The notes below the pieces were generated by a model. The model was not told the origin of the DNA and did no database searches. It saw nothing but the letters and a program-made list of their open reading frames with translations. 64,000 bases of DNA from a virus. Its lineage: Duplodnaviria > Caudoviricetes. Positions 1 through 14,222 of this stretch are shown here, one piece after another. The stretch is taken from positions 9,022-73,021 of the IMG/VR virus record IMGVR_UViG_3300030708_002923, one strand, 5' to 3'. Both the position numbers and the translations under genes were made by a program. The stretch's first letter is position 1, and every line of letters starts with the position of its first letter.

Positions 1-700
1 CCCGGCACGTTTCACGGACGGCGGGGGAGTGCCAAGACCCCAACACCTGCGGGCGAGCGCCACTAAGGCTTTGAGCAACATCAAGGCCCCGTCTATAAAT
101 CCACCGCGACGAATCGCAGCGCTTACAACGTGTCGAGGTGGTAGAAATGCGATGCGGCGAGCAGTAGCGAGGCCGAGGGATTAGTAACCCCGAAGACTAC
201 TGCAAGGTATCCCCCCACCTTACACGGGGGGACTGTGAGGCCGTGGCCCGCAGTGAACACCGCCCCGGCGAGCGTATCGCCGCCCCTTTCTACATAGCCG
301 CCGCAAGGGATTACCCTGGATAATACGGCGGGCAATACCGAAAACCCCTACAACGGTCGCACCTTGCTGAGGGCTTCAATCCAAGAGGGATAAAAACGCT
401 TCCCTGTTCTATTGATAGGTAGGGGTCGGGCTCGTACCTCGGCCCCGTTTCATTACATAGCCGCCGCCGAGGCTCCCCCTATGATTCAGAGAGGGGTTGA
501 GCCCCGGCGGGCGGTGGACCTTTCCCGGTTCGCTGTCCTGCGATTCGTCGCTGTTGACATGCCAACTACCGCAAATGTAGGATAGCCCGGTTTTAACGGG
601 GCTTTTCGATGTATTTTGTACCGATAGGGCGGGGGGCCTACCCCTGATTTTTACACCTTGTCCCGCTGTTGGTCCGGTTGCCATGTCAACACCAGCACGG
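1..700 (+). ncRNA. Candidate large structured RNA (or structured terminal DNA); may begin before the window
   Basis: No credible ORF. Dense nested stems: 161-167/197-203, 210-216/226-232, 344-351/419-426, rod 461-514, 552-561/682-691; UUCG hairpin 540-551; G-U wobbles favour the + strand. Confidence 0.4.
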
Positions 701-846
701 AATAAGCCGCTTCAAAGGCTGCATATCACGTAGCCGATGGGTATTTTCATTCGGGGGCTTGAGAGGTGGCGCGGACCAACCCCGCATAAAATCCCCGCCA
801 TATTCGCCTGTACTGGTACGAATGACCGAACCTTACCCCCCTTGTA

Positions 847-1057
847 CCCTAACCTCTGCCCTAACCTATCGACGAGGTTAGGGCACCCGATAGCCCGCCT
901 TCAAGGTGCCTTATCGGTTGATGCCCTAACCTACCCTAACCTCTGGCCCAACATTTTGAACCTCTCGGATTTTCTCGACTGTCTCGTTCTTCTCTCTCTA
1001 CTATATTGTATTACCTACCTACCTATTCTGTCTAATAGGTTAGGGTAGGTTAGGGCA
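847..1057. repeat. CCCTAACCT/AGGTTAGGG iteron cluster with inverted symmetry (possible origin, packaging or protein-binding site)
   Basis: CCCTAACCT at 847, 859, 924, 934; reverse complement at 875, 1037, 1047; perfect 21-bp inverted repeat 922-942/1037-1057; 11-bp IR 857-867/875-885. Confidence 0.85.
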
Positions 1058-1135
1058 ATAGAGAATAAACGAGGTTCAACCGGGCTTTTCAACCTGCCCC
1101 AACGTAGGGGCACCACTGCCCCAACGGGTAGGCAC

Positions 1136-1164
1136 TTGACACCCTTTACCCCTTCCCTTAGACT
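1136..1164 (+). promoter_or_regulatory. sigma70-type early promoter
   Basis: TTGACA (1136-1141), 17 bp, TAGACT (1159-1164), just upstream of the first ORF; preceded by CAC as at 6040 and 12231. Confidence 0.75.
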
Positions 1165-1200
1165 GACATACCAGCCAAACCCTAACAGACTGGAGATATC

Positions 1201-1530
1201 ATGCCTGTACTCAAACGATACAAGCCGCACGGCGGCTATCCCTTGGCGCCTGGAGCCGGATGGGCGACTGTCCGAAAACTGACCAACAGAGAGGCGGTCA
1301 TGATTCTGAATGCCTCCGAGACTATGGCTGAGCGTGGCCCTGATGGATTGCGCGACACCATCGCGGGCAAGTGCTTTGTAGCTTTGAATCGATTCGGTCG
1401 CCCTAAAGCTGGCGAGTGGAACCAACCCTGTCCCGCCGGTACTCGTGCCATCTACCACCACGGTGGTGGTGGTGGCGTGTGGTCCGGTTTCTATATCATC
1501 GAAAAACTAAAAACCCTGGAGCAATCATGA
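1201..1530 (+). CDS. Hypothetical early protein (109 aa)
   Basis: CTGGAG RBS upstream; first gene after the promoter; ATGA overlap with the next gene. Confidence 0.7.
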   Translation: MPVLKRYKPHGGYPLAPGAGWATVRKLTNREAVMILNASETMAERGPDGLRDTIAGKCFVALNRFGRPKAGEWNQPCPAGTRAIYHHGGGGGVWSGFYIIEKLKTLEQS

Positions 1531-2087
1531 TGAACAAAAAGACACGCACAATCGATGGCACAACCTATACCGTGACCTATGGATTCGATACCAAGTTTGC
1601 CGCGAAGCATAATCAACGGCCGTACTTCAGCATCACCCTTGACGTAACCGAGGGGAAACGATGGGTAAGCGGTGGCGCGGATTCTGATACCATCGCGGAG
1701 GTATTCCCCGAACTTGCCAACGTTCTACAATGGCACCTGGCTGACCACTCCGCGACACCTATACACTACGTGGCCAACACCATGTACTGGCGGGACCACT
1801 TCCCAACGCAGGCCGAGGTACAAGTATCTGAGGATGAGCCAACGCAAACGGTTACCATGGCTCCAAAGTATGAGGACCGGTACAACTACGGACCCGAGAG
1901 ACTCGCGGCTCACTTGAAGTCTTGCATGGCTTGGGGCGCGTTACCGTCAGAGCGTGACTGGACGGGCGACAGCCCCGAGACGTGGGACCGTGACACGCTC
2001 CGTGTGTACCTCGTGACACGTCAAGCGGCCTTGATGGATAACATGCGCGCGGACCTTGCGGCCGTAGGCGTGACCATTCCCAACTAA
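1527..2087 (+). CDS. Conserved phage hypothetical protein (186 aa)
   Basis: Start reassigned to ATG 1527 after the CTGGAG RBS; RPYFSIT...FPELA...WHL...PIHYVAN motif resembles a widespread phage family. Confidence 0.75.
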   Translation: MMNKKTRTIDGTTYTVTYGFDTKFAAKHNQRPYFSITLDVTEGKRWVSGGADSDTIAEVFPELANVLQWHLADHSATPIHYVANTMYWRDHFPTQAEVQVSEDEPTQTVTMAPKYEDRYNYGPERLAAHLKSCMAWGALPSERDWTGDSPETWDRDTLRVYLVTRQAALMDNMRADLAAVGVTIPN

Positions 2088-2123
2088 TCAACCGGGGCCC
2101 CGTGCCCCACTGGAGCAAACAAA

Positions 2124-2414
2124 ATGCCAATAGACCAATCATTCAAGTCCTATTCCTCTGCGCTTGCAGAATATGTAAACCATCCTGACTACTACAAGGG
2201 CCGATGGGCTGTACGCTGTACCGTAATCGCAACGGGCCAAGTCGGTAGGCGGGTATTCGACAGTCACTCGGATGCGACAGCATTTGTAGATGACTTGGTG
2301 GCGCGGGGGGTATGCACTCCCGGTGATGGCAAGTACCGCATTCGTTTCGAGCGCGTTGACCCCTTGCCTGGATTCCCTAAAGCCCTGGAGCAATCATGCA
2401 ACGCATCAAGTTAG
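2124..2414 (+). CDS. Hypothetical protein
   Basis: ATG directly after the hairpin/RBS repeat. Confidence 0.65.
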   Translation: MPIDQSFKSYSSALAEYVNHPDYYKGRWAVRCTVIATGQVGRRVFDSHSDATAFVDDLVARGVCTPGDGKYRIRFERVDPLPGFPKALEQSCNASS

Positions 2415-2626
2415 AAAACCTCGAAAACGTAGTAGACCGTATCAATTCGGCCGGTGTCGGCACCTACATGGTCGACCATACAAGCGGCGGCGTCCGCCTA
2501 TCCATGCTGAACGAAACCGGCGGAAGGCGTGCCATCACGCCAATAGGAACCAAGCGCGAAACCTACTACCGCATGCACGCCTTTCTGGATGGCGTTGAGG
2601 CTGCCCAACACGGGGGGCAATCATGA
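2396..2626 (+). CDS. Hypothetical protein (76 aa)
   Basis: CCCTGGAGCAATCATG start; ATGA overlap with the next gene. Confidence 0.7.
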   Translation: MQRIKLENLENVVDRINSAGVGTYMVDHTSGGVRLSMLNETGGRRAITPIGTKRETYYRMHAFLDGVEAAQHGGQS

Positions 2627-2946
2627 GCGCCATCATCGACACCATTAACCTGAGCGCCTGTAGCGATTGTCTTCTATTCATCGCCAACGGTGACGAGCCA
2701 GAAGGTGACGAAACCCTACCCGCTCGCATCCAATCGGAATGGACCGTATCCGACGATACATGTGACCACCATGGCGCCGTCCACGGTTCCCTATGGTGGG
2801 ACATCGTGTACGGTGGCGAGCATGAAAGCGAGGCCGACGAGCACAGCGGTTCCCTCGGTTTCTCATGGTCATCGTGCGAGTGTTGCGGTTCAAGTCTCGG
2901 AGGCGACCGCTACCCCTTGACCGCTATCCTCAGACGTAAACCCTGA
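2623..2946 (+). CDS. Hypothetical Cys-rich (Zn-binding?) phage protein
   Basis: CSDC...ANG and FSWSSCECCGSSLGGDR motifs. Confidence 0.7.
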   Translation: MSAIIDTINLSACSDCLLFIANGDEPEGDETLPARIQSEWTVSDDTCDHHGAVHGSLWWDIVYGGEHESEADEHSGSLGFSWSSCECCGSSLGGDRYPLTAILRRKP

Positions 2947-2958
2947 ACCCCTGGAGCA

Positions 2959-3831
2959 ATGATGTACCCCGAAACGTTCTGGAATAAACCCGTGCCCGCC
3001 AAGTACCGCAAGGCGCTGGAGGGCTTGGGGCTACCCCTTGACATAAGCCGGCGCGACCTATTCCGGTTCGTTGCCTTCACCGATTCAGGCAAGCCCCGAA
3101 ACATTCTCGGGTCTTCCTCTAAAGTAGAGAAGGGCGAAGGCGCTGGTGTTCTCACCGCAATCCTGTACCTGTCGCCCGGTCGTGAGGCCGGTATCAATAT
3201 GTGCCCAATGGCGGCAGGCTGTGAAGCTGGATGCCTTGGGACTACCTCGCGCCGGATGACATGGCCTACCCATAAGAAAGCGCGGGTATGCAAAACGGTA
3301 TGGCTGATGCTATTCCGTGACCACTTCCTACGGCGCCTGTCTTGGGAGATAATCGGCCACGCTATGACGGCGGAAGCCATGGATATGAAACCCGCTATCC
3401 GCCTGAACGGGTCGAGTGATGTACTGTGGGAAAACTACAACGTACCTCAGAGCCATCCAGAGGTGCAGTTCTACGACTATACGAAGCTGCCAGCGAAAGC
3501 CCGCGCAGGCGTGCCGGATAACTACCACCTAACGTTCAGCCTATGCGAGCGCCCCGAGAGCAAGGGTCGAGCCCTGGAGTGGCTCAACGCAGGCCGAAAC
3601 GTGGCCATGGTCGTGGGCGGTGAGTCTACAACCGACAGGCCAAGCGTAATGCTGAAGGCGGCAAAGGCGGCGGCAGCTACTATCATCGAGCGCGGAACCT
3701 TCGAGGGCTTCCCCGCTGTAAGCGGTGACAATGATGACATTCGATTCGATGACCCACCCGGCGCCTGGGTCGTGCTCTATGCCAAGAGTGGCGCCCTGAC
3801 AGACAGTACTGGATTCGTCCAGCGATTCTAA
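2959..3831 (+). CDS. GP88-family protein (Cys cluster, possibly Fe-S/radical-SAM-like)
   Basis: LYLSP...CPMAAGCEAGCL, IRLNGSSDV, VQFYDYTK, NYHLTFS, GDNDDIRFDDP motifs. Confidence 0.8.
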   Translation: MMYPETFWNKPVPAKYRKALEGLGLPLDISRRDLFRFVAFTDSGKPRNILGSSSKVEKGEGAGVLTAILYLSPGREAGINMCPMAAGCEAGCLGTTSRRMTWPTHKKARVCKTVWLMLFRDHFLRRLSWEIIGHAMTAEAMDMKPAIRLNGSSDVLWENYNVPQSHPEVQFYDYTKLPAKARAGVPDNYHLTFSLCERPESKGRALEWLNAGRNVAMVVGGESTTDRPSVMLKAAKAAAATIIERGTFEGFPAVSGDNDDIRFDDPPGAWVVLYAKSGALTDSTGFVQRF

Positions 3832-3863
3832 CAATGAGGGGCTTCGGCCCCACTGGAGAGACA

Positions 3864-3959
3864 ATGGGAACACTTGAAGACCGATACCAAAACTATGTTC
3901 AATGCATGATTGACCTTGGTCAACCATACGTGGACTTTGACACGTGGCTCAACCGATAG
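3864..3959 (+). CDS. Small protein, 31 aa (MGTLEDRYQNYVQCMIDLGQPYVDFDTWLNR); below the ORF-track cutoff
   Basis: ATG after the hairpin/CTGGAG repeat; fills the gap up to the next repeat. Confidence 0.65.
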   Translation: MGTLEDRYQNYVQCMIDLGQPYVDFDTWLNR

Positions 3960-3972
3960 CCCTGGAGCAAAC

Positions 3973-4194
3973 ATGAGACTGTCCTATAGATTCTTCGATA
4001 CCCGACAGGAAGCACGGAAGTTCTTTCAGTCCAATAACCTCACACTGGAGGCGTTCTATCACACTTGGCACGGCGAGTGGTTGATTTGCTATCCAGACCC
4101 GCACGCCATCGGGTGTGAGCACCTGCCCGAACTTCAACCCGGTTGCGATGAAATCCTTTGGGAAATGGACCTAATCGTAGAGTGTGAAGGCTAA
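3973..4194 (+). CDS. Hypothetical protein (73 aa)
   Basis: Start reassigned after CCCTGGAGCAAAC. Confidence 0.65.
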   Translation: MRLSYRFFDTRQEARKFFQSNNLTLEAFYHTWHGEWLICYPDPHAIGCEHLPELQPGCDEILWEMDLIVECEG

Positions 4195-4231
4195 CTAATC
4201 AACCGGGGCTTCGGCCCCACTGGAGCAAACA

Positions 4232-4591
4232 ATGAGCAAACGAGCAAAGACATATCATGAGATAGAAGACAACCATTGTATCTTGAAGATACGACAGGAA
4301 CGCGAGGAACGGGACGAATACAACAAGTCAATCGGTAAATCTCAACGGGGCTTTGAACTTCACAGCCCGAGACTTCGGGCCAATGCGAGCCTTAGAACGG
4401 TGGTGAAACATGCGCGAGACGCGGCCGACTTTGCGCTTTACCGTTATCGAGTGGAGCGCGATTGGTGGCACACACTCCGAGATACAAGCCAGGTCAGAGA
4501 GTATCAAAACAAAGGGCATGAAGTGGAAATACTTCGAGACAGGTGGCACACACTCGAAGAAATCGCGCAGCACCTTGAACGACTCACTTAA
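4232..4591 (+). CDS. Hypothetical protein (119 aa)
   Basis: Flanked by two full repeats; short internal duplication (RDWWHTLRD / RDRWHTLEE). Confidence 0.7.
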   Translation: MSKRAKTYHEIEDNHCILKIRQEREERDEYNKSIGKSQRGFELHSPRLRANASLRTVVKHARDAADFALYRYRVERDWWHTLRDTSQVREYQNKGHEVEILRDRWHTLEEIAQHLERLT

Positions 4592-4623
4592 TCAACCGGG
4601 GCTTCGGCCCCACTGGATACCCC

Positions 4624-4827
4624 ATGCACAAAAAGAAATACCGCGTCATCTACCGATGCCGCAGCACCCATTTACCAAGGTATCAATACGACTGTGGCGG
4701 TTACGTTAGCCGAGGTGTTCTCCAACGTAGCCGTATCGTGTCGGCTGCTGACGCTGCCCAAGCCGTCCTGAAGGCTCGCACGTTCGATGATTACATCGAA
4801 CTTGTGACTGTCTACGAGTCTGCCTAA
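4624..4827 (+). CDS. Hypothetical protein (67 aa)
   Basis: Flanked by two full repeats. Confidence 0.6.
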   Translation: MHKKKYRVIYRCRSTHLPRYQYDCGGYVSRGVLQRSRIVSAADAAQAVLKARTFDDYIELVTVYESA

Positions 4828-4864
4828 CCTAATCAACCGGGGCTTCGGCCCCACTGGAGCAAAC

Positions 4865-5137
4865 ATGCAAACGAATGAAAACGCATTTATCGAACGTTGT
4901 TTCTGTATGTCACCGAAGCATCGAGACTGGAACCAAGCATGGGAAGCGATTGCGCGCCATGAATCCAACCGAGAAATGAACGATAAAATGACCGCAGCCT
5001 GCCCGTTTAGCGGCGAGTCATGGCAATACATGGGCAGCTACAACAAGCCACAAGGGAACGTCCACACGTTCCGCCATCGCCGTCACCCTGGAGTGAACGG
5101 TGAGCGCGTCAACGTGCGCGTGTTCATCCCCAACTAA
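4865..5137 (+). CDS. Conserved phage hypothetical protein (90 aa)
   Basis: GESWQYMGS...HTFRHRRHP motif; repeat-associated RBS. Confidence 0.7.
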   Translation: MQTNENAFIERCFCMSPKHRDWNQAWEAIARHESNREMNDKMTAACPFSGESWQYMGSYNKPQGNVHTFRHRRHPGVNGERVNVRVFIPN

Positions 5138-5161
5138 ACCGATAGCCCTGGAGCAATCATC

Positions 5162-5353
5162 ATGACACTACAAGAGGAACTGGCAGCGTTGAAGCTGGCC
5201 GACATAAAAGACAAGCTACTGCGCTACTTGCTCAAAGACGTGGAAGCGAACTTCGAGCACTTGACGAATGAGGAACGCACCATCATCGGTGACCCTGAAA
5301 CATTCAGCGCGCTGTTGGAATCCATTGGGATTGACCAGCACGGAACCCGATAG
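5162..5353 (+). CDS. Hypothetical protein (63 aa)
   Basis: Short-form repeat RBS. Confidence 0.65.
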   Translation: MTLQEELAALKLADIKDKLLRYLLKDVEANFEHLTNEERTIIGDPETFSALLESIGIDQHGTR

Positions 5354-5389
5354 CATACCCGACACACACAAACAAACAGGAGGTGAGTG

Positions 5390-5599
5390 ATGCCTACATA
5401 CCAAATACACTGCACAGCAGCGATTGAAATATACGCAACCGTCGATGCCGATAGTATAGAGCATGCCAAGCGCATCGCTTCAAACATTACGATTGTAAAC
5501 TACGCCAATGAAACGGTAGGCGCCGAGACAGACGACGGAGAGATAACTGAAGTCATCGGCCATGAGGTAGCTGGTATTACAATCACAGGAGGTGAGTAA
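5390..5599 (+). CDS. Hypothetical protein
   Basis: AGGAGGTG RBS; ends GGE*. Confidence 0.7.
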   Translation: MPTYQIHCTAAIEIYATVDADSIEHAKRIASNITIVNYANETVGAETDDGEITEVIGHEVAGITITGGE

Positions 5600-6018
5600 T
5601 GAGCCCTACCGCAAGATTCAAAGAGTCCATCAACGGTAGCGATGTAGTCATCGACCTACGGCCTGGACAGACCTTGACCCACGTAAAGTATGAGCCTACC
5701 GATGAGGGATGGGACCGCACTGTACACACGTGGCATTACGATGCCGATAGCAAAGTCATCACAGTCAACTACTTCAATGAAGGCCGCGACTGTGATGGCT
5801 ACATGTCAACCCACTACGAACGCGAATGCTCGGTTGACCGGCTACGCTCTCGAACAGTGAAGCATCCGACTGGTGGACGGTGGGAGCCATTCACCTTCGA
5901 CGATGGCACCACTGCCCACGAGTGGGTGACCACTTGGGAAGAACAGACAGGCTGGCCTGACTGGAGAGAGGTCGGCTACGAGTACCATGACCAGAACGCC
6001 AGAGCGATGGGCTACTAA
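5599..6018 (+). CDS. Conserved phage hypothetical protein (139 aa)
   Basis: TAATG coupling; PTDEGW, GRDCDG and AMGY motifs. Confidence 0.75.
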   Translation: MSPTARFKESINGSDVVIDLRPGQTLTHVKYEPTDEGWDRTVHTWHYDADSKVITVNYFNEGRDCDGYMSTHYERECSVDRLRSRTVKHPTGGRWEPFTFDDGTTAHEWVTTWEEQTGWPDWREVGYEYHDQNARAMGY

Positions 6019-6039
6019 ACTTTACCTATGCTGACACAC

Positions 6040-6069
6040 TTGACAGCCAATACCAAACAGGTGTATAAC
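6040..6069 (+). promoter_or_regulatory. sigma70-type promoter for ardC
   Basis: TTGACA (6040-6045), 18 bp, TATAAC (6064-6069). Confidence 0.7.
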
Positions 6070-6099
6070 CCTAATGAGCAAACAAACCGGAGATTCAAC

Positions 6100-7053
6100 A
6101 TGGCTAAAAAACCAACATTCAACACGCACCAAGTCATCACCGATATTATCTTGGCTTCGATGGAGAAGGGCGTACAGCCCTGGCGCAAAGGCTGGACCGC
6201 ATTGGGTGGCGCCTTGAGCCGTCCCGTCAGTGGAGGTACAGGCAATCCATACAACGGTATCAACGTGATTCTGCTATGGGCGGCACAGTCCGAGCGTGGC
6301 TACCACTCCGATACTTGGCACACGTACAAGGGTGCCCAAGGCAAGGGCGGTCAGGTACGCAAGGGTGAGAAGGGTACACGCATCGTCAAGTGGTTGTTCC
6401 TGCCATTCAAAGAGAACGGACAGGTAAAGCTTGATGCCAACGGTGAGCCCGTGACCTTCGCAAAGATGAGGCTGTACACAGTCTTCAACGCTTGCCAGAT
6501 TGATTGGGCAGAGGGTAGCGAGCATGCCCCTGGTCCTGCTCCAACAGTGGAGGAACACGATGGTTCTCAGGCCGGTGACGAGTACGAAGATGCCAAAGTC
6601 ATTCTGGATTCGTGGGCCGATGAGGTCACAATCAGACATGGCGGCGACTCAGCATTCTATCGACCATCGGATGACTTGATTCAACTGCCCACCTTTGAAC
6701 AGTTTGACAGTGAAGCCGAATACTTCTCGACTGCCTTTCATGAGGCGATTCACAGCACGGGCCACAGTACCCGCCTGAACCGCTTCAAAAAGGAACGCAA
6801 GGGTAGCTACAAGCAAGCCTACGCATTCGAGGAACTGGTAGCAGAGTTGGGTGCAGCGTTCTTGTGTGCGGATGCTGGTATCAACCAGCCAGAAGAACCA
6901 CGCGAGGACCACGCGCAGTACTTGGCCCACTGGCTCGAAGTACTCAAGGGTGACCCGAAGGCCATCGTGTCTGCGGCATCCAAGGCAGAGAAGGCAGCGA
7001 AGCTTGTAGTGGCAAAGGCTGGCGAGGCCGGTCAACAGCAGGCAGCGAAGTAA
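6100..7053 (+). CDS. ardC: ArdC-family antirestriction protein (ssDNA-binding N-domain plus zincin-like domain)
   Basis: PWRKGW, YNGINVILLW, GGQVRKGEKGTRIV, AFYRPSDDLI, FHEAIHSTGH (HExxH), YAFEELVAELGAAFL; start reassigned to ATG 6100 (GGAG RBS). Confidence 0.93.
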   Translation: MAKKPTFNTHQVITDIILASMEKGVQPWRKGWTALGGALSRPVSGGTGNPYNGINVILLWAAQSERGYHSDTWHTYKGAQGKGGQVRKGEKGTRIVKWLFLPFKENGQVKLDANGEPVTFAKMRLYTVFNACQIDWAEGSEHAPGPAPTVEEHDGSQAGDEYEDAKVILDSWADEVTIRHGGDSAFYRPSDDLIQLPTFEQFDSEAEYFSTAFHEAIHSTGHSTRLNRFKKERKGSYKQAYAFEELVAELGAAFLCADAGINQPEEPREDHAQYLAHWLEVLKGDPKAIVSAASKAEKAAKLVVAKAGEAGQQQAAK

Positions 7054-7065
7054 ACCGGGAGAGGG

Positions 7066-7096
7066 AAGCAGTTTGCGGTCTGCTTATCAAAACCGC
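7066..7096 (+). promoter_or_regulatory. Putative H-type RNA pseudoknot in the ardC downstream spacer
   Basis: S1 AAGCAG 7066-7071/CTGCTT 7080-7085; S2 GCGGT 7075-7079/ACCGC 7092-7096; loops TTT and ATCAAA. Confidence 0.45.
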
Positions 7097-7123
7097 CTAC
7101 CTTTCAACCATCATGGAGAACAA

Positions 7124-7357
7124 ATGATGATTCGATACCTAATCGTTGACACGGAAATAGACCCCAATGAAACAGGCTCTCAGGGCATGTCTGCGGCATT
7201 CGTTCGCAACAGCAAAGACAGAGTCATGCACACAACTAACATTGAAAAGGCTCGCCGATGGCGCGACAGTCGCAATGACGGCATCGACGAGGGAGAGCCT
7301 GGTTTTTCGATTCTCGAAATAAACACAGAGACGGGCGCACAACGCCTTGTTTCATAA
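7124..7357 (+). CDS. Hypothetical protein (77 aa)
   Basis: TGGAG RBS before ATG 7124. Confidence 0.65.
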   Translation: MMIRYLIVDTEIDPNETGSQGMSAAFVRNSKDRVMHTTNIEKARRWRDSRNDGIDEGEPGFSILEINTETGAQRLVS

Positions 7358-7377
7358 CAAACAACAGGAGGTGAATG

Positions 7378-7659
7378 ATGAACATGCCAGAAGGATTGAA
7401 GTACTGGACCGCTGACGAGGTAGCCGAATGCCTTGATGGAATCGGGCCTGACCTATATCGCAAGCTGTGGGAGATTCTTGCTGAAGCCAAGAACCCTACA
7501 CCACTTGGGGGCGACGGTTCCAATGGAACAGTCGAGACACCAGATGGTCGGCTGGACGAGGACAACGACGACAAGGCCCCACACTGGTGGGTCAAGCTTA
7601 CGCCAGCCGAGCAGACAACTATCGCATCAGCATACATCGCTGAACGTGGAGGTGAGTGA
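7378..7659 (+). CDS. Hypothetical protein
   Basis: AGGAGGTG RBS; ends GGE*. Confidence 0.7.
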   Translation: MNMPEGLKYWTADEVAECLDGIGPDLYRKLWEILAEAKNPTPLGGDGSNGTVETPDGRLDEDNDDKAPHWWVKLTPAEQTTIASAYIAERGGE

Positions 7660-7979
7660 TGCCTAAGTATACAGCAGGACCATGGGAAGCGTCGGAAGGC
7701 TACCCCTCGGACATCTGGCACGTTGACATGCCGAGTCGAGGATATTCCGTCGTCGTATCCCGAGCAGAAGAAGATTGGGACGTGGCTGTCGAGGAAGTGC
7801 AGGCCAACGCACACCTGATCGCGGCGGCACCTGAGTTGCTGGATGCTTTGATCATCACACTCGATCTCGCCGTGGGTCACGCCTGTGACTCTCGGGGAAT
7901 CACACCAGCAGAGTGCGCAGACTGGGAGTGGGTGAAGCAGGCTCGCAAACTCATCGCGAAAGCGAAAGGAGGTGAGTGA
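7659..7979 (+). CDS. Conserved phage hypothetical protein (xGPW...ANAHLIAAAPELL family)
   Basis: Motif typical of a widespread phage family; ends GGE*. Confidence 0.8.
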   Translation: MPKYTAGPWEASEGYPSDIWHVDMPSRGYSVVVSRAEEDWDVAVEEVQANAHLIAAAPELLDALIITLDLAVGHACDSRGITPAECADWEWVKQARKLIAKAKGGE

Positions 7980-8005
7980 TGCCGAGAAGATGGCAAGGAA
8001 GGTGA
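7979..8005 (+). pseudogene. 8-codon mini-ORF MPRRWQGR, apparent remnant of the 5' end of gene 8186
   Basis: Coupled ATG after the motif; shares AGATGGCAAGGA with the start of 8186 (MGRWQG). Confidence 0.5.
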
Positions 8006-8009
8006 AGTA

Positions 8010-8186
8010 ATGGAAAACAATGAAGCAAACCGATTGAAGTTAGCCGAGGCCATTTGGGAAACGCTAAGTCTCGACGACTTACATGAGCAGTTCATCTTCC
8101 AAAGTCTCGAACGATACAAAACAGATCCCGACGCATTCGAGGAAGATTGTGCGGCCATGGATCTCGACAATGATGGAGGTGAGTGA
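8010..8186 (+). CDS. Small acidic protein, 58 aa (MENNEANRLKLAEAIWETLSL...DNDGGE); below the ORF-track cutoff
   Basis: GGAAGGTG RBS; ends GGE* coupled to the next ATG. Confidence 0.7.
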   Translation: MENNEANRLKLAEAIWETLSLDDLHEQFIFQSLERYKTDPDAFEEDCAAMDLDNDGGE

Positions 8187-8674
8187 TGGGTAGATGGCAA
8201 GGACCAGAACACCAATACTCAGAGGCTCGACGCGCCTACGAACAACGTGAAGAATATCGCTATGAGCGATGGAAGGAAAGGAATCCAGAATGTCATAAGT
8301 GCGGAGAGCGTGAGCACGAAGACAAGATGACCGACATGTATGGGGATGACTGGTGTACTCATTGTGTCAGTGAGCACGCATTCGAGTGTGACGTGTGCGG
8401 CAAGACACACGCTAACGAGTACCTGACCGACGTAGACTTAACGATGGGCGAGTACGTATGCGACGAGTGCGACGAGAAGTGTGCAGCCGACAAGACGCGC
8501 CATCATGCTCCAGTAGAGATCCCGATCGGTCACATGGAATATGTACTATGGACTATGGAGAACGCTGCGAAGGACGAACCATATGAAGGTACTCAACCGG
8601 GCAACGCAAAGAAATGGTTGAGAGAAAGCATTGACCGGATCAAACAATCAATGCCCAAAGAGGACGGTGAGTGA
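8186..8674 (+). CDS. Multi-CxxC zinc-finger hypothetical protein
   Basis: CHKC, CTHC, CDVC, CDEC. Confidence 0.75.
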   Translation: MGRWQGPEHQYSEARRAYEQREEYRYERWKERNPECHKCGEREHEDKMTDMYGDDWCTHCVSEHAFECDVCGKTHANEYLTDVDLTMGEYVCDECDEKCAADKTRHHAPVEIPIGHMEYVLWTMENAAKDEPYEGTQPGNAKKWLRESIDRIKQSMPKEDGE

Positions 8675-8892
8675 TGCAACGGTTCGATGAAGTGATGGTC
8701 CGGCGAAGTGTCGGGTGGGGCTCCGGTTGGGAGTATGAATACGGCTACGTAAAGTTTCTATACTCAGAGACGCCTTGGGTGAGGGTGAGAGTTTTCAAGA
8801 GCAAGCGTTTTGGACCCTCATCTTCGACGTTCCATGTCGATAGTGTATTTCCTATCTACGGTCCTATTCAAGCGCATGCAGGAGGTGAGTGA
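8674..8892 (+). CDS. Hypothetical protein
   Basis: Coupled start and stop motifs. Confidence 0.65.
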   Translation: MQRFDEVMVRRSVGWGSGWEYEYGYVKFLYSETPWVRVRVFKSKRFGPSSSTFHVDSVFPIYGPIQAHAGGE

Positions 8893-9380
8893 TGAACATA
8901 TTCGTTTTACACCCTATGCCTGACTTGGCTGCGCGTATGCAGTGTGACCGGCATGTAGTCAAGATGACCCTTGAGACTGCACAGATGCTCTCTACGGCCA
9001 TCAATGAGTTGGGTGGGCAGGCATCCTACAAGTCTGCCCACGTCAACCATCCGTGCTCTGTGTGGGCACGGGAAACGCTCGGCAACTTCGTATGGTTGTG
9101 GGAGCACGGAATCAACCTCGCCCAAGAGTACACCGCAAGGTACGGGAAGGTACACAAGTCGGAAGTAGTCATCCGTGACTGCTACCACACAATGATGCAA
9201 CGTCAGCTACTCAAGAGCCGAAGGCTGACACCACACCCACTGTGTATGCCTGACGAGTACAAAACAGACTGTGTGTATGAATCGTATCGAAACTTCTACA
9301 TAGGTGAGAAGTCACGATTCGCACGATGGAACAAAACAACTGAGTCACCGTCATGGTGGCCGCAACAAACAAGGACATGA
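8892..9380 (+). CDS. Pyrimidine-dimer DNA glycosylase / DenV-like protein
   Basis: MNIFVL...CDRHVVKMTLETAQMLS, YKSAHVNHPCSVWAR, EYTARYGKVHKS motifs. Confidence 0.8.
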   Translation: MNIFVLHPMPDLAARMQCDRHVVKMTLETAQMLSTAINELGGQASYKSAHVNHPCSVWARETLGNFVWLWEHGINLAQEYTARYGKVHKSEVVIRDCYHTMMQRQLLKSRRLTPHPLCMPDEYKTDCVYESYRNFYIGEKSRFARWNKTTESPSWWPQQTRT

Positions 9381-9383
9381 GTG

Positions 9384-9644
9384 ATGATTATCTATGTACT
9401 GGACGACGGAGAGACGTGGACCCTGAGTGAGCCCACGGCGGTAACGATCACGGATGAGCAACTGACGCGCATTGAAGGCGGTGAGAAGTTGTACCACGTC
9501 GTACCCGATTGGGATGAGCAACAGGGTGACGATGCCGATGACTTTTTCATTCGGGCTGGCATCGCTGCCCGAGAAGCACTGAAGGAAATCAAGAGAGACT
9601 ACACAAACAGCATCGTAGATGCTCAGAACCAGGGAGATGAGTAA
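9384..9644 (+). CDS. Hypothetical protein
   Basis: Degenerate coupling motif. Confidence 0.65.
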   Translation: MIIYVLDDGETWTLSEPTAVTITDEQLTRIEGGEKLYHVVPDWDEQQGDDADDFFIRAGIAAREALKEIKRDYTNSIVDAQNQGDE

Positions 9645-10015
9645 TGCCCTATAAATATGTATGGCCAGAGGAAGCATTCGAGGTACGCATCCAGTGTACT
9701 GAGGAACAAATACAACAGCATTGTGATGCGGCGCCTGAGAACGACCGTCGAGACTTCGATGATCGTGGTGGGCTTCAGATACCGGTGTACCATGTATACA
9801 AAAACGATTCGATTGATGAGCGTTTGACTTATTGGTATACGCTCGACAAAAACGAGTGCGATACCTACGAGTTTGATGTTCGCGATATTCCGACATGGTG
9901 GAACTGTTCTTCAGAAAGTCCAGAGAATCATCAAGACTGCATCCAAGAAGCATTGAACGATGGCGTCATTGAGTTTGATGGATTGCTACTGAAGATACAC
10001 AAGATGGCTGAGTGA
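9644..10015 (+). CDS. Hypothetical acidic protein (123 aa)
   Basis: TAATG coupling. Confidence 0.7.
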   Translation: MPYKYVWPEEAFEVRIQCTEEQIQQHCDAAPENDRRDFDDRGGLQIPVYHVYKNDSIDERLTYWYTLDKNECDTYEFDVRDIPTWWNCSSESPENHQDCIQEALNDGVIEFDGLLLKIHKMAE

Positions 10016-10091
10016 TCCCCATGTCGGACCTATTGTCCTGGCTCCGTACTCTCTAATGAGGCACTATCGCTTCACCAACACAGGAACCCAA

Positions 10092-10316
10092 ATGACTGAC
10101 GATGAACGAATAGCACTGATCAACGACACAACAACCAGTGACTCTCTAAACTACGCGCTGATACGGGCCGAACGAAACTCACTAGACCACAGCGCGACAA
10201 TCTACGACAACTACCCTGTCGGTGCCACCAACATCACAGCCACCGACTGGCAACGCCACTGGACTGAGTCTGATGAAATGTTCGATATGATGTGGAACGG
10301 TACAACGAACACTTAA
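10092..10316 (+). CDS. Hypothetical protein
   Basis: ACACAGGA RBS before ATG 10092 (alternative start 10056). Confidence 0.55.
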   Translation: MTDDERIALINDTTTSDSLNYALIRAERNSLDHSATIYDNYPVGATNITATDWQRHWTESDEMFDMMWNGTTNT

Positions 10317-10506
10317 CAACATTCAACCGAGTGACGTCGAGGACGCTCCACAACACTCATCGCGAGGTGCATCATGTTCTAAGTCATAGTGCCGGTAAGG
10401 GTGAGGGGCCTGGATTACTCACCCAAGTAGACCTTTTATTGTGACCCATGTCCAAACGGAACCAAGCGCCGGTTCTGTCCACCGAGCCTACAACACAGGA
10501 GTATGT

Positions 10507-10719
10507 ATGACTCGCTTACCAAACAGATCAGCCTTTCCAAGTTTCGACTTGGCCCTTGGCCCGCACGACCCCTCCAAACTTCAGCACCGTCACCCGTTTA
10601 CAGAGTGGGTGAAGCCGGTGCCAGAGACAATCCCCCCAATGAATGAACCACAACAAAGTGAATGGATTCGCCTGAACGATAGCGTGGTTCGCAGAGCAAA
10701 CACAGGAGAGCAAAAATGA
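10507..10719 (+). CDS. Hypothetical protein
   Basis: ACACAGGAG RBS; ATGA overlap with the next gene. Confidence 0.55.
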   Translation: MTRLPNRSAFPSFDLALGPHDPSKLQHRHPFTEWVKPVPETIPPMNEPQQSEWIRLNDSVVRRANTGEQK

Positions 10720-10916
10720 CTGAGCAAGAAATCAAACAACTAAAGAGCATGCGGAGACTATTAGAGCAGTGGTCTAAACCACAACCCACGGTTGCGATCG
10801 GCAACGCAGAGAACGTTCAATCGTTCCCTGAAGAATCTCGTATTGCGTTTCAGCAGCAGCTTGAAGCAATCAACAAGGTTCTCGAAAGGGCAGAGGCAGA
10901 GGACAGCCAAGCATGA
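10716..10916 (+). CDS. Hypothetical protein (66 aa)
   Basis: ACAGGAG RBS. Confidence 0.7.
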   Translation: MTEQEIKQLKSMRRLLEQWSKPQPTVAIGNAENVQSFPEESRIAFQQQLEAINKVLERAEAEDSQA

Positions 10917-11125
10917 CACCAAGCAAAGAGACACCCATTGGAACACCACTGAAGTCTACCGTGAAGGGATGGGGTAAAGGTCCATTCGTTTACATGGGCA
11001 ACGGCAGAGGCGGACAGACAATCATAGTCGCAACGAAGAAGGATGGATTGCAGCAAGCGCGCGCATCTGACTTCTCCATCGATTCGATTGCCGCCAAAGC
11101 CATTGGTGACTTTATTATCAAGTAG
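10913..11125 (+). CDS. Hypothetical protein (70 aa)
   Basis: ATGA coupling. Confidence 0.6.
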   Translation: MTPSKETPIGTPLKSTVKGWGKGPFVYMGNGRGGQTIIVATKKDGLQQARASDFSIDSIAAKAIGDFIIK

Positions 11126-11128
11126 CGG

Positions 11129-11157
11129 TTGACTATGGCTTTACTTGCCTGTAAGGT
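11129..11157 (+). promoter_or_regulatory. sigma70-type promoter
   Basis: TTGACT, 17 bp, TAAGGT. Confidence 0.55.
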
Positions 11158-11192
11158 CATACCTACCCTACCTCAACACACTGGAGCAGAAG

Positions 11193-11492
11193 ATGAACAA
11201 AGCAGAGCAGTTTAGATTACCGGTGAGCCCGCGCAACATTTCAGTTGAGTTGGTTCGAGAGGTTGAAGACGAAGATACAGGCGAGGTTGTCGCGGAACAC
11301 ATCATCGAGGTATTTGGTCGGTTCCTTCCTGCGGAGCCCAATGTGGGTCTTGGTCCCCACATTGAGGTTCTGTCAGCGCACCGACAAGACAGGGACGTTC
11401 GCGTTCCTGTAGAGTTAGAAGATTGGGAGGTTGACACGTTGCTCGACCTTTATCAAGAGCAGTTGCGGACAGAACTTGACCGTGACATTTGA
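11193..11492 (+). CDS. Hypothetical acidic protein (99 aa)
   Basis: CTGGAG RBS before ATG 11193. Confidence 0.7.
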   Translation: MNKAEQFRLPVSPRNISVELVREVEDEDTGEVVAEHIIEVFGRFLPAEPNVGLGPHIEVLSAHRQDRDVRVPVELEDWEVDTLLDLYQEQLRTELDRDI

Positions 11493-11529
11493 TTTTTTAT
11501 GGCATACTTGACGAACACAGGAGAACAAA

Positions 11530-11817
11530 ATGAGCACCAATCAATGTAATAAATGCTACAACCCCATCGGAAACAACATCACAGCCCTTCACAACATTCA
11601 AGTGATGAAGGCCGTCATGCAAGATTCGATGGTGCGTGCGGACGAGGCCGAGGACAGCGCGCATAAGGTGATGATTCTGGAATCAACAATCAACCACATT
11701 TTAGAAAACATCGAGAGAGATTTTGGTGAAGCGTGGTCGATTCATAAACAACAAATGAAGGAGTTGATGGAGTCTCTGAGAGATCAGGGAATCATCAGCG
11801 ATGTAGGAGGTGAGTGA
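11530..11817 (+). CDS. Hypothetical protein (95 aa)
   Basis: ACAGGAG RBS; ends GGE*. Confidence 0.7.
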   Translation: MSTNQCNKCYNPIGNNITALHNIQVMKAVMQDSMVRADEAEDSAHKVMILESTINHILENIERDFGEAWSIHKQQMKELMESLRDQGIISDVGGE

Positions 11818-12221
11818 TGTTTGTTTTCAACGATGGTGGTAGAGCAGACGCAGGATTCAAGGGGACGACCGGAGATTGTGCCGTTCGCGCCATGGCGATT
11901 GCTCTTGATCTTTCCTACGCTGACGTGTACCGCGAGTTGGCCCAAGCCAACAAAGACGCAGGCCGCAAGAAGTCAGTGAGGCGAGGCGTGATGAAAGAGG
12001 TATACAGCACGGTACTTTCAAAGTACGGATGGGAGTGGCGCTCTGCACCGAAGTTCGACGGACGCAAGGCACGGTATAATGACCTACCCAATGGCAAGTG
12101 TATCGCTCGCATGGCGGGTCACTACGCAGCGGTCATCGACGGTAATCTACACGACTCGTGGAACTCTGGACGCAAGATGGTGTACGGCTACTGGGTCAAG
12201 GCAACCGAAGGAGGTGAGTGA
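11817..12221 (+). CDS. Conserved phage protein with a papain-like Cys/His/Asp signature
   Basis: GDCAVRAMAIA...GHYAAVIDG..HDSW...VYGYW. Confidence 0.7.
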   Translation: MFVFNDGGRADAGFKGTTGDCAVRAMAIALDLSYADVYRELAQANKDAGRKKSVRRGVMKEVYSTVLSKYGWEWRSAPKFDGRKARYNDLPNGKCIARMAGHYAAVIDGNLHDSWNSGRKMVYGYWVKATEGGE

Positions 12222-12230
12222 CAATCACAC

Positions 12231-12259
12231 TTGACACACTTGGACCAACCAAGTAATGT
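12231..12259 (+). promoter_or_regulatory. sigma70-type promoter
   Basis: TTGACA, 17 bp, TAATGT, preceded by CAC. Confidence 0.7.
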
Positions 12260-12283
12260 ACTCAAACCATACAGGAGAATGTA

Positions 12284-12568
12284 ATGAGTAACAACGTTAC
12301 GAAACTTAGAAAGCGTAAAGCAAACCAGAAAAGAGAATGGTCATGGCCGTCATTCATATCGGCATGGCAAGAGTCAGAGTCATACGAAGATGTATTAGAG
12401 CAGCTTGGCTTTGAAGATACACCACAAGAGCGCAGCTTCATTGGTGGCAAGGCTTCATACGCAAGAAAAAAGGGCGTGCCCTTGAAAAAGTTCAAGCGTA
12501 AGCGCAGAGGATCTAAAATCGATTGGAACGGACTTGCGGACTTAGCAAAGTCAAAGAGTGAATCGTGA
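12284..12568 (+). CDS. Basic hypothetical protein, possibly DNA-binding
   Basis: ACAGGAG RBS; Lys/Arg-rich. Confidence 0.7.
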   Translation: MSNNVTKLRKRKANQKREWSWPSFISAWQESESYEDVLEQLGFEDTPQERSFIGGKASYARKKGVPLKKFKRKRRGSKIDWNGLADLAKSKSES

Positions 12569-12691
12569 TTGAATATACAGAGGTCCTCTCTTTTATAAGA
12601 AACGCAAACCACATATTTTGGGCCGTGAGCCTTAATAGAGCGATTGGCAAACTTAACAATCGTTGGTACACAAATCGATTGGAGGTAGTAA

Positions 12692-13195
12692 ATGTCAAAC
12701 ATTGAAGACGCAGAGGGGTCATACAAAGTCTTCCTGGCGATCAAAAGCGATTCAGACCTGAATGAAAAGTTTCGCTGCACTCGTGACGGAGTCATGTACT
12801 ACAGCGGCAAAAAGATGACAGAACCTGACTTCTCACAAGTGTCAGTCTACTTGGCACAAAAGTGGAAAGTAGTGTGCTCGAAGGAAGAGTTGAAGTCTGG
12901 CATCATGGCAGCGTCTAAGCGCATCGAGCCTCAACTTATCTACGGAACAAACTTGGCCGAAGACTTCAGACTGAAGGTCAAAGAGTTCTTAGAGCACAAC
13001 CCGCCATCGTGCCACAGGTATGACATTACAACTGATGTAGTGGCTGAGTACGTTGATCCTGATGGATGGCAAGAGCAGAGGCGACTGACAGAAATGAAAG
13101 TAGCAAAAGCCCTAAAAGAGCAAGGGCTTCAAAAAGTGCGGGTAACGCACAAGGGAGAAAGAAAAATGCGTTGGTTCCCGATCACGGGATCGTAA
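12692..13195 (+). CDS. ATPase-less paralogue of the VapE-like helicase (N-domain plus C-terminal wHTH-like domain)
   Basis: Both halves align by eye with the N- and C-terminal parts of 15283..16617; no Walker A; GGAGG RBS. Confidence 0.7.
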   Translation: MSNIEDAEGSYKVFLAIKSDSDLNEKFRCTRDGVMYYSGKKMTEPDFSQVSVYLAQKWKVVCSKEELKSGIMAASKRIEPQLIYGTNLAEDFRLKVKEFLEHNPPSCHRYDITTDVVAEYVDPDGWQEQRRLTEMKVAKALKEQGLQKVRVTHKGERKMRWFPITGS

Positions 13196-13218
13196 TCATA
13201 AACAAACAGGAGAGTGCT

Positions 13219-13713
13219 GTGGAACTCACATCACAAGAAATAATCGCCCTTACGAAGGCGTTCAACACGAAAGCAGTCTCGATTGCAAAACGGGACATCG
13301 ACAACAACTCTGAGATTGACGTGAACCTTATCGTCAAGATCGCTGGTAAACTCAAGCGAGGCCAAGAGTCTAAGCCAGTCAAAGCTACCTCCACAATCCC
13401 GTGGAAAGTGGCCCTGGCTCTCTTTGCCAAGCGCTCTGGGTTCACCCGTGAGCAAACTGCAAAGGTGCTGCTTGAGGCGGTTACCTTCGCACTCGAAACC
13501 AACTCCGACAAGAAGACTGAACTTCTTGAAGAAATGGGAGTTGGGGATGCCCTGGCCATGCTGGACCGAGAGGTCTTTGACAAGCTGCCCAAGAAGACCC
13601 GTGATGGAAACATCACCTTCGAGGTGGCAATGGTCGAGGCTGTTCGAGAGCCAATGTTGGTGGCTGACCAAGACACTTTAACCCTTGGGGAAGGGGAAGA
13701 GGTGGCGAAGTAA
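13219..13713 (+). CDS. Hypothetical protein (164 aa)
   Basis: ACAGGAG RBS then GTG 13219. Confidence 0.75.
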   Translation: MELTSQEIIALTKAFNTKAVSIAKRDIDNNSEIDVNLIVKIAGKLKRGQESKPVKATSTIPWKVALALFAKRSGFTREQTAKVLLEAVTFALETNSDKKTELLEEMGVGDALAMLDREVFDKLPKKTRDGNITFEVAMVEAVREPMLVADQDTLTLGEGEEVAK

Positions 13714-13719
13714 GTCGCC

Positions 13720-13756
13720 GGGGTCACCGTTTCAGCGGGGCGGTGACCCCACTTTT
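13720..13756 (+). terminator. Intrinsic terminator-like hairpin
   Basis: GGGGTCACCG/CGGTGACCCC 10-bp stem followed by ACTTTT. Confidence 0.65.
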
Positions 13757-13760
13757 CATT

Positions 13761-14099
13761 ATGGAAAAATCAGATCAAATCGAAGATTACGAACGTATCG
13801 ACACATTCCAACTTGTGTTTCAGATGACTCAATCAATGGGTGGACTACAGAAAGGTAAGCACTCAAAGATGGCCTACATCTACGGCACAAGCCGTTCCCG
13901 GCTACGCAGCATCCTAAACCGTGAGGCAAAGGCACCAACACTGGATACCGTTGTTTCATGGATGCACAGAGTGTACCGGCTGACCGGAATGAAGGTCGTG
14001 CTGACCATCACACCTGATCTTAAAATGCACTACAGCATCTTGAGTCAGAACCAAGAACGTATCGACGGAATGATCGTTCCCCCGAAAAACAGTTTGTAG
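13761..14099 (+). CDS. HTH DNA-binding protein
   Basis: MAYIYGTSRSRLRSILNREAKAPTLDTV resembles an XRE-type HTH; weak RBS. Confidence 0.55.
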   Translation: MEKSDQIEDYERIDTFQLVFQMTQSMGGLQKGKHSKMAYIYGTSRSRLRSILNREAKAPTLDTVVSWMHRVYRLTGMKVVLTITPDLKMHYSILSQNQERIDGMIVPPKNSL

Positions 14100-14131
14100 A
14101 AAGTCATACGACCGACTACAGCACAATGCCC

Positions 14132-14217
14132 TTTGGGGATTGATCCCCCCAAAAGTGGGGCTCCTGACTGAGCCCACCGGGTATCCGGTGGCGCTCTTTC
14201 GGGCTCCCCGTCAGGAG
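14132..14217 (+). promoter_or_regulatory. Structured leader that sequesters the primase SD
   Basis: CTCCTGAC 14161-14168 pairs with GTCAGGAG 14210-14217; GAGCCC/GGGCTC and ACCGG/CCGGT nested inside. Confidence 0.5.
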
Positions 14218-14222
14218 TTACC

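Follow-up and report, generated by a model that had tools for sequence, protein, structure and literature searches.

Why does a phage genome that carries several hundred GATC sites lack every one of them over more than 9 kb at a single place? The question is raised by a stretch of 64,000 nucleotides (the window) that comprises bases 9022-73021 of a 73,021-bp IMG/VR virus contig (G000), which derives from an uncultured marine phage and is rated complete by CheckV. The window opens within a GATC-free zone that includes a gene for the anti-restriction protein ArdC, and an earlier note on this DNA proposed that the zone enters the host cell first and is purged of sites for a host nuclease, while ArdC and its neighbors protect the rest. 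Positions below are those of the window unless they are given as genome (contig) positions.

Extent of the GATC-free zone

The GATC-free gap extends over genome positions 7452-16837 (9,386 bp, ca. 13% of the contig), between GATC sites at 7448 and 16838, and thus corresponds to window positions -1569 to 7816. From the trinucleotide composition of the zone itself 34 GATC sites are expected and none is observed, compared with 329 sites elsewhere in the genome. The remaining 64 kb carries GATC at 0.84 of expectation, there are 37 sites in the 7.4 kb that precede the zone, and the next-longest gap in the contig measures 986 bp (Poisson probability of the long gap ca. 1e-16). The right-hand boundary is abrupt, with three GATC sites within 50 bp just past the zone (7817, 7850 and 7863) and eight in the next 1 kb. 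Furthermore, the zone has a GC content of 55%, versus 46-48% elsewhere in G000.

The computed scan agrees with the earlier line-by-line reading that positions 1-7816 contain no GATC, and it returns exactly the positions listed there for the sites that follow (7817, 7850, 7863, 8124, 8160, 8518, 8524 and 8638). The Markov expectation for positions 1-7816 is 30.5, close to the estimate of about 30, and the boundary lies 764 bp past the ardC stop at 7053 (the estimate was ca. 760 bp). What had been taken for an end of the genome, on the other hand, is only the edge of the window: the contig continues for 9 kb upstream, and the zone starts ca. 1.57 kb before the window does. In terms of transcription, approximately 1 kb of the zone belongs to a leftward unit, where it takes in the first 380 nt (5' end) of a conserved gene (321 aa); the other 8.4 kb belongs to a rightward unit, the plus-strand early/middle block (genome ca. 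8.46-31.6 kb).

Depletion at synonymous positions

The contribution of protein coding to the gap was assessed by shuffling synonymous codons among the 18 open reading frames (ORFs) of the zone 2000 times, with the protein sequences and the codon usage of the zone kept. The tetranucleotide counts were as follows.

GATC: 25.9±3.9 in the shuffles (minimum 14 among the 2000), 0 observed
CTAG: 11.8 in the shuffles, 0 observed
AATT: 12.3 in the shuffles, 1 observed
TTAA: 12.1 in the shuffles, 2 observed

Codon choice in the contexts that would create a GATC, compared with other contexts, was as follows.

Asp encoded as GAT, next base not C: 49/104 in the zone, 87/189 just downstream
Asp encoded as GAT, next base C: 0/27 in the zone, 27/53 just downstream
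Ile encoded as ATC, previous base not G: 56/84 in the zone, 73/125 just downstream
Ile encoded as ATC, previous base G: 0/18 in the zone, 16/48 just downstream
NGA followed by TC: 0/78 in the zone, 10/160 just downstream

Within the zone the contrasts between contexts are highly significant for both amino acids (Fisher P=6e-7 for Asp and 6e-8 for Ile). Downstream of the zone, GAT before C is not avoided (P=0.54); ATC after G is still under-used there relative to other contexts (P=0.004), which indicates that a weaker bias persists past the boundary in that one context. The shuffles and the context-specific choice of codons together show that codon and amino-acid usage, which the earlier note had named as a possible explanation of the depletion, do not account for the gap (25.9±3.9 sites after shuffling versus none).

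These controls also bear on the idea of a compositional or horizontally acquired island, in which a GC-rich gene pool, or selection of codons for fast translation, would have removed GATC as a side effect. The zone is richer in GC than the remaining genome by 4-12% in every relative, it is hypervariable, and the GC content at third codon positions (GC3) falls from 0.605 in the zone genes (737-7659) to 0.499 (8183-22583) and 0.395 in the late genes (27908-58625), while GC1 and GC2 barely change; in addition, the leading regions of plasmids are reported to combine high GC and adapted codons with no consistent loss of palindromes (PMC13478746). However, the trinucleotides and the codon usage of the zone itself still predict many GATC sites, the avoidance is specific to context in codon pairs, the boundaries fall inside genes, homologues elsewhere carry GATC, and the non-homologous zones of two deep clades (described below) share the loss. 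A compositional island is therefore an improbable account of the whole pattern and is largely refuted for GATC.

Other palindromes and the tiers of the genome

Among the 136 strand-merged tetranucleotides, the three most depleted in the zone are GATC (0/34), CTAG (0/22) and AATT (1/22, the sole copy being at 2444), and the chance that the top three would all be palindromes is P~0.0014. The palindromes TCGA, CATG, ACGT, GTAC and GGCC occur at normal levels relative to the synonymous shuffles, and no depletion was found in the zone among 5-mers and degenerate sites (GANTC, CCWGG, GGWCC and others). GATT/AATC and GATA/TATC are in excess, in part as an arithmetic consequence of GATC removal, and are not used as evidence here. 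The Markov-corrected palindrome count suggested in the earlier note thus upholds the GATC purge and adds CTAG and AATT to it.

Beyond the zone, depletion of the three palindromes is graded along the genome, with the late block as an internal control.

7817-22583, plus strand: rest of the early/middle block; GATC normal at 5.0/kb, AATT 12 versus 50 expected, CTAG 2 versus 20 expected
22584-64000, minus strand: late/virion block; GATC 256/291, AATT 192/243, CTAG 25/66

Only one AATT is found across genome positions 5844-24046 (none in 2445-15025 of the window), and CTAG is absent across genome positions 4621-19202 (none in 1-10181 of the window). The CTAG deficit of the late block is the generic, genome-wide one, and AATT is only mildly low there. 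The same order, early below middle below late, is seen for AATT, and for CTAG where it is testable, in six genomes. The GC3 gradient by temporal class runs parallel to these palindrome tiers and resembles the codon-adapted, GC-rich leading regions of plasmids.

Six-base palindromes are rare across the whole G000 contig (GGATCC 0/15, CTCGAG 0/13, CAGCTG 0/10, AGATCT 1/10 and GACGTC 2/11; CCCGGG, CCGCGG and GAGCTC are absent), and this genome-wide avoidance indicates that the phage is under restriction-modification pressure generally.

Selection at the level of RNA, with GAUC, CUAG and AAUU lost from early transcripts as cleavage targets of a host endoribonuclease or toxin, would be in keeping with a zone that is probably transcribed early as a single long unit, promoter-like sites being scarce within it (3 versus 8.9 expected). 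That all three words are palindromes nevertheless fits dimeric enzymes acting on double-stranded DNA rather than RNases, and the purge also covers the leader, about 1 kb of opposite transcription and non-coding DNA, so that we regard this explanation as very improbable.

Conservation by position in relatives

Helicase anchors identified more than 100 related viral contigs; 21 of the longer ones were taken in full and oriented by means of this gene. In several of them the longest GATC gap falls where the plus block begins, measuring 7.2 kb in G002, 5.5 kb in G004 (followed by 6 sites in 7 kb), 4.9 kb in G005 (followed by sparse sites to 10.6 kb), 4.8 kb in G010 (followed by 7.7 sites/kb) and 3.6 kb in G012; in G006, G007, G008, G020 and G022 the longest gap falls there as well, clipped by the contig end. 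The zone-bearing relatives fall in two deep clades of the helicase tree with ca. 49% identity, so that depletion, which the earlier note would have expected to be missing from relatives had it been mistaken, recurs across considerable divergence.

In tblastx comparisons most of the zone has no homology from one relative to another, and what they have in common is limited to ardC and some small genes; the genome is hypervariable here, and conserved synteny starts ca. 5 kb after the zone. Homologues of ardC and of the GP88 gene in unrelated viral contigs lie in ordinary DNA and carry GATC. Taken together, the non-homologous contents and the GATC-bearing homologues elsewhere indicate that the absence of GATC is a property of the position and not of the genes.

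In G010 the boundary is very sharp (no GATC in 4.8 kb, then 20 in 2.6 kb). About 400 bp before it, within G010 17430-18180, a 500-bp intergenic gap holds a cluster of terminator-like hairpins (6 versus 1.5 expected) together with promoter-like sites.

ArdC and the end of the gap

The anti-restriction gene itself lies close to the right-hand end of the zone.

6028-7053, plus strand: ardC, encoding an ArdcN domain that binds single-stranded DNA and a zincin metallopeptidase (MPTase-PolyVal)

The N-terminal ArdcN domain matches PF08401 (E=2.6e-30, residues 33-153) and the C-terminal zincin matches PF18818 (E=2.3e-42) with its HEAIH motif intact, so that the identification of the gene in the earlier note holds for both domains. 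The G000 gene contains no GATC, compared with 1-6 in its homologues from unrelated viral contigs.

The expectation that relatives would keep a GATC-free zone ending near ardC is borne out in part. The strict gap ends 78-764 bp beyond ardC in all four ardC-bearing genomes, one of which (G001) has a single GATC just upstream of ardC; the zone is, however, also present in the ardC-less relatives G005, G010 and G012, and sparse tails of 5-7 kb follow it in G004 and G005. A rule that the zone always stops at ardC was accordingly softened, in view of these tails and of the upstream GATC in G001, and the occurrence of zones in ardC-less relatives means that ArdC is not required for the zone. Pfam and PHROG scans of the zone ORFs of G000, and of the zone-end ORFs in the ardC-less relatives, returned otherwise only domains of unknown function (GP88, DUF7227 and DUF7168/DUF2786).

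A methylase lineage and a switch of motif

Among 49 related contigs, a phage Dam-family methyltransferase (PF05869, E~1e-31) is encoded only by G011 and its sister G041; the gene is absent from G000 and 46 other relative contigs, and neither D12 nor N6_N4 methyltransferases occur in G000, G004, G005, G009, G010 and G011. The Dam lineage keeps normal GATC in the early zone (34/42 in G011). Its zone instead lacks TTAA (0/10 in G011), a word missing from 10 kb at the corresponding place, the start of the early block (oriented coordinates 7243-17423), and G044 likewise keeps GATC and misses TTAA. The G011 Dam gene (oriented coordinates 17754-18110) is located ca. 330 bp beyond the TTAA gap, loosely mirroring the location of ardC near the end of the gap in G000.

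A switch of motif at a fixed position, and a methylase that substitutes for avoidance, are both predictions of host-specific Type II restriction pressure. Retention of GATC in the zone of the only Dam-encoding lineage favors enzymes acting on unmethylated GATC (DpnII/MboI type); the methyl-dependent, DpnI-type option that the earlier note left beside these is disfavored on the same grounds.

The same observations can be turned toward a selecting agent that reads methylation, either through host functions linked to Dam (SeqA sequestration, MutH nicking or methylation-sensitive promoters) or as a DpnI-type nuclease, with the loss of AATT and CTAG having separate causes such as nucleoid-protein binding and the generic rarity of CTAG. 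GATC is indeed the Dam site, whether or not a phage encodes Dam correlates with how its zone is composed, CTAG is low genome-wide (25/66 even in the late genes), and AT-rich words are generally rarer in the GC-rich zone. Effects on promoters or SeqA would nonetheless need local clusters of sites, not the loss of all ca. 34 over 9.4 kb of coding DNA, and the tolerance of methylated GATC by the Dam-encoding lineage speaks against a DpnI-type agent. Moreover, AATT is reduced 12- to 20-fold relative to the codon-usage and trinucleotide nulls of the zone, while ATAT and TATA are not depleted. We consider a methylation-reading agent unlikely.

Genes, promoters and junctions of the zone

The rightward part of the zone is occupied by the following features, to which ardC is to be added.

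1-736, plus strand: distal part of a ca. 1.3-kb leader (genome ca. 8460-9757) with no convincing ORF
554-583 and 1136-1164 (genome 9575-9604 and 10157-10185), plus strand: predicted sigma-70-like promoters into the early genes
737-5353, plus strand: about 12 small early ORFs of unassigned function, including a GP88/phrog_1617 protein at 2959-3831
2085-2121, 3828-3864, 4195-4231, 4588-4624 and 4829-4865: five copies of a GGGGC-TTCG-GCCCC hairpin, each fused to a ribosome-binding leader (CTGGAGCAA-ATG), at junctions of the small early genes
5390-7659, plus strand: another series of early ORFs, whose stop and start codons overlap in the junction motif GGAGGTGAGTGATG
7656-7979, plus strand: ORF of phrog_1273, with no known function, inside which the zone ends

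On the left, a conserved stretch of what appeared to be non-coding leader (genome 8067-8455, minus strand) shows 3-nt periodicity and a reverse-strand ATG and is conserved in G002, G004, G005 and G006; it is probably a small conserved early gene on the minus strand, and this predicted gene would place the divergence point near genome position 8460. With some 18 small plus-strand ORFs to the right of that point and the small minus-strand gene to its left, the layout is that of divergent pre-early units. An Rfam search of the leader gave no family match, only sub-threshold noise.

The GGAGGTGAGTGATG motif replaces the hairpin junctions from 5379 onward, and further copies occur past the zone boundary at 7968, 8175 and 8881; this continuation shows that the boundary is not a module junction. 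Both boundaries of the zone lie inside genes, the right-hand one within a continuous gene array that shares this single junction motif. A long terminal repeat of the T5 kind would account for both boundaries cutting genes, although gene-cutting is itself no evidence for a repeat.

The gene content of the zone is of further relevance to the suggestion that the selecting agent is a pre-early nuclease of the phage itself, which would destroy host DNA by cutting at GATC, AATT or CTAG at a time when no more than the site-free segment has entered; the remaining genome would follow after shut-off. There is a precedent in T5, which degrades host DNA at the first-step-transfer stage while the remaining T5 DNA is still outside, in line with the annotation of A1, and nearly all of the ca. 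18 zone proteins are of unknown function. Domain scans, however, detect no nuclease domain in any zone ORF, and the purged motif differs between lineages that share few zone genes. An own nuclease, which we hold to be a distinctly poor candidate, would also still require staged entry and is in that sense a variant rather than a true alternative.

Genome layout and contig ends

The plus block of G000 contains small early ORFs, ardC, a denV-like glycosylase gene, a primase, two helicases, a YqaJ exonuclease and RecT. The minus-strand block is the remainder of the genome, two thirds of its length, and wraps over the contig junction; it encodes the major head protein, the large terminase, internal virion proteins, two giant proteins of 2568 and 1265 aa, RusA and a few small genes. 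Within the giant pair (30682-38388 and 38408-42205, both on the minus strand), the 1265-aa protein has a C-terminal M23-type peptidase domain, and its 2568-aa neighbor has no family match in the Pfam and PHROG scans of large ORFs. The two are candidates for internal proteins, or for ejected ones that breach the cell wall, such as those by which podoviruses control DNA entry.

Both contig ends of G000 lie within one giant minus-strand ORF, and the contigs of relatives break at other positions, from which it follows that these ends are assembly breaks and not physical termini; contig ends were consequently dropped as a guide to the ends of the virion DNA. One giant ORF is cut off by the start of the contig (genome 2-5086, minus strand) and another enters from the contig end (62437-63999, minus strand); joined circularly they would give ca. 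2,200 codons, one base out of frame. The G000 contig is probably broken inside this internally repetitive giant gene.

Megablast of positions 1-12000 against cultured phages gave no match. A protein search with the terminase returned nothing above 28% identity, and no cultured relative or host was found.

A probable leading region kept free of restriction sites

The purge is real, acts on DNA at synonymous positions, is specific for palindromes, is tied to position and recurs in diverged relatives. We consider it probable, though by no means assured, that the zone is a leading region in which restriction sites are avoided, the remainder of the genome being covered by ArdC and other early products. 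Under this scheme the leading (pre-early) DNA around the divergent early promoters would be exposed in the cell before any phage counter-defense is available, and selection would strip it of the 4-bp palindromes cut by host Type II enzymes, namely GATC (by DpnII/MboI-type enzymes acting on unmethylated sites), AATT and CTAG. The approximately 330 GATC sites elsewhere would be affordable only if that DNA were exposed later or were shielded by then, for example by ArdC. The segment would thus either enter first or linger alone, as in the two-step entry of T5 or the transcription-coupled entry of T7 and N4. Because a single cut anywhere kills the phage, regional avoidance makes sense only with regional exposure. 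The order of entry, the location of the physical ends, the nucleases acting and the role of ArdC as protector of the remaining genome are what we infer from this pattern.

A more specific proposal, which we put forward tentatively and as doubtful in its full form, is that the 9.4-kb zone is a first-step-transfer segment in the style of T5, possibly a long terminal repeat, that arose independently in a family unrelated to T5, T7 and N4. Its three nested tiers (a GATC-free core, AATT/CTAG-poor early/middle DNA and normal late DNA), mirrored by GC3, would then reflect an order of exposure in several stages, and the purged palindromes would be the lineage-specific imprint of the Type II enzymes of the hosts, with a phage Dam as the alternative to avoidance.

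Several points weigh against avoidance in a leading region, the first of them geometric. The zone is two-sided, beginning ca. 1 kb left of the divergence point within a conserved minus-strand gene, and the AATT/CTAG-poor span reaches 2.6-3.8 kb leftward; such an arrangement is not predicted by a simple genome end at the promoter, although a T5-like repeat with divergent units would predict it. There is no terminator, repeat cluster or other punctuation at the right boundary in G000 (7817). All 49 related contigs are classed as linear without end repeats and with scattered breaks, so that termini and entry order are not readable from the contigs, and the terminase is nearest (at most 28% identity) to enzymes of T4-like and jumbo phages, many of which package by the headful mechanism, which would leave no fixed leading end.

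Other points concern the agent and the generality of the pattern. ArdC is documented against Type I systems, not against GATC cutters. The GC3 gradient (0.61, 0.50 and 0.40) shows that other forces on synonymous sites also vary by compartment, and G009 is without both a zone and a Dam gene. A helicase search in 185k bacterial genomes gave no relative and thus no clue to the host or its restriction-modification systems.

On balance, the staged anti-restriction reading of the earlier note survives in that the depletion acts on DNA, is position-specific and conserved, and sits at the start of the early block; its placement of the genome end does not, and its DpnI option is disfavored.

Comparison with known systems

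Regional avoidance is already known in principle from T5-like phages and, since 2025, from the marine Murciavirus, and the strategy is accordingly not new in principle. In T5 and BF23, only restriction sites in the first-step-transfer segment confer sensitivity, and sites elsewhere are tolerated (PMC10644984). This segment comprises ca. 10 kb (8%) where the early genes begin, and its small genes for host takeover are arranged in two divergent transcription units; the 9.4-kb zone is comparable to it in these respects. T5 and G000 nevertheless have no sequence relationship, the T5 segment has been proven to be a terminal repeat and to carry a stop signal for injection, and its GC content (0.40 versus 0.39) is not enriched to the degree seen in the G000 zone. 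Examined with the same statistics, the T5 segment also has no purge of 4-bp palindromes (GATC 26/35, AATT 94/118).

N4 (Schitoviridae) is similar in another way: entry begins with the left end of its DNA and must await the transcription of early and middle genes before it can finish, and in this genome of ca. 70 kb the early and middle genes run rightward from the left end and the late genes leftward (PMC4496689). A relationship to N4 was rejected, as the terminase gives E=0.81 in BLASTP against N4 gp68 and no N4-type virion RNA polymerase was recognized. A phage of the T7/Autographiviridae type was likewise rejected on account of the late block, two thirds of the genome, which lies on the opposite strand so that the genes are not co-directional. 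A search for PF00940 RNA polymerase gave no match, with the control genomes equally silent, and no RNA polymerase was found in the Pfam and PHROG scans of large ORFs.

Avoidance of GATC over the whole genome occurs in phages such as T7 and staphylococcal phage K, with the same motif and presumed agent; in G000 the avoidance is regional. The ardC gene is a classic anti-restriction gene of the leading regions of conjugative plasmids, which enter as single-stranded DNA. These leading regions are GC-rich and codon-adapted like the zone, but their 4-8-bp palindromes are reported as not consistently depleted (PMC13478746), so that GC-richness is common to both whereas motif depletion reportedly is not.

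If the entry model is true, zones of this kind would reveal from sequence which end enters first, and how far, in phages that have never been cultured, as well as the restriction specificities of their hosts and candidate anti-restriction early genes; if the first-step-transfer reading is also true, injection polarity and the host restriction-modification repertoire would become readable from metagenomic phage genomes.

A further parallel is Murciavirus (Autographiviridae), in which absence of a motif from the hypervariable, first-injected region alone gives escape from the Mme2I Type I restriction-modification system (NAR 2025, PMC12455610); for the remaining DNA, protection by an anti-restriction protein made early has been proposed (PMC12455610). 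Its layout differs from that of G000, where the late genes are on the opposite strand and no phage RNA polymerase is recognized, and it avoids one bipartite Type I motif present in 0-2 copies, compared with three 4-bp palindromes removed dozens of times in G000. In the earlier cases as a whole, the motifs are few in kind (6-bp or Type I) and each is present only a handful of times. In G000 and its relatives this principle has apparently been taken to the complete removal of 4-bp palindromes, at dozens of sites and by synonymous changes, in a purge that spans an uncultured phage family and that comes with graded tiers, lineage-specific switching of motifs and a natural trade-off between methylase and avoidance.

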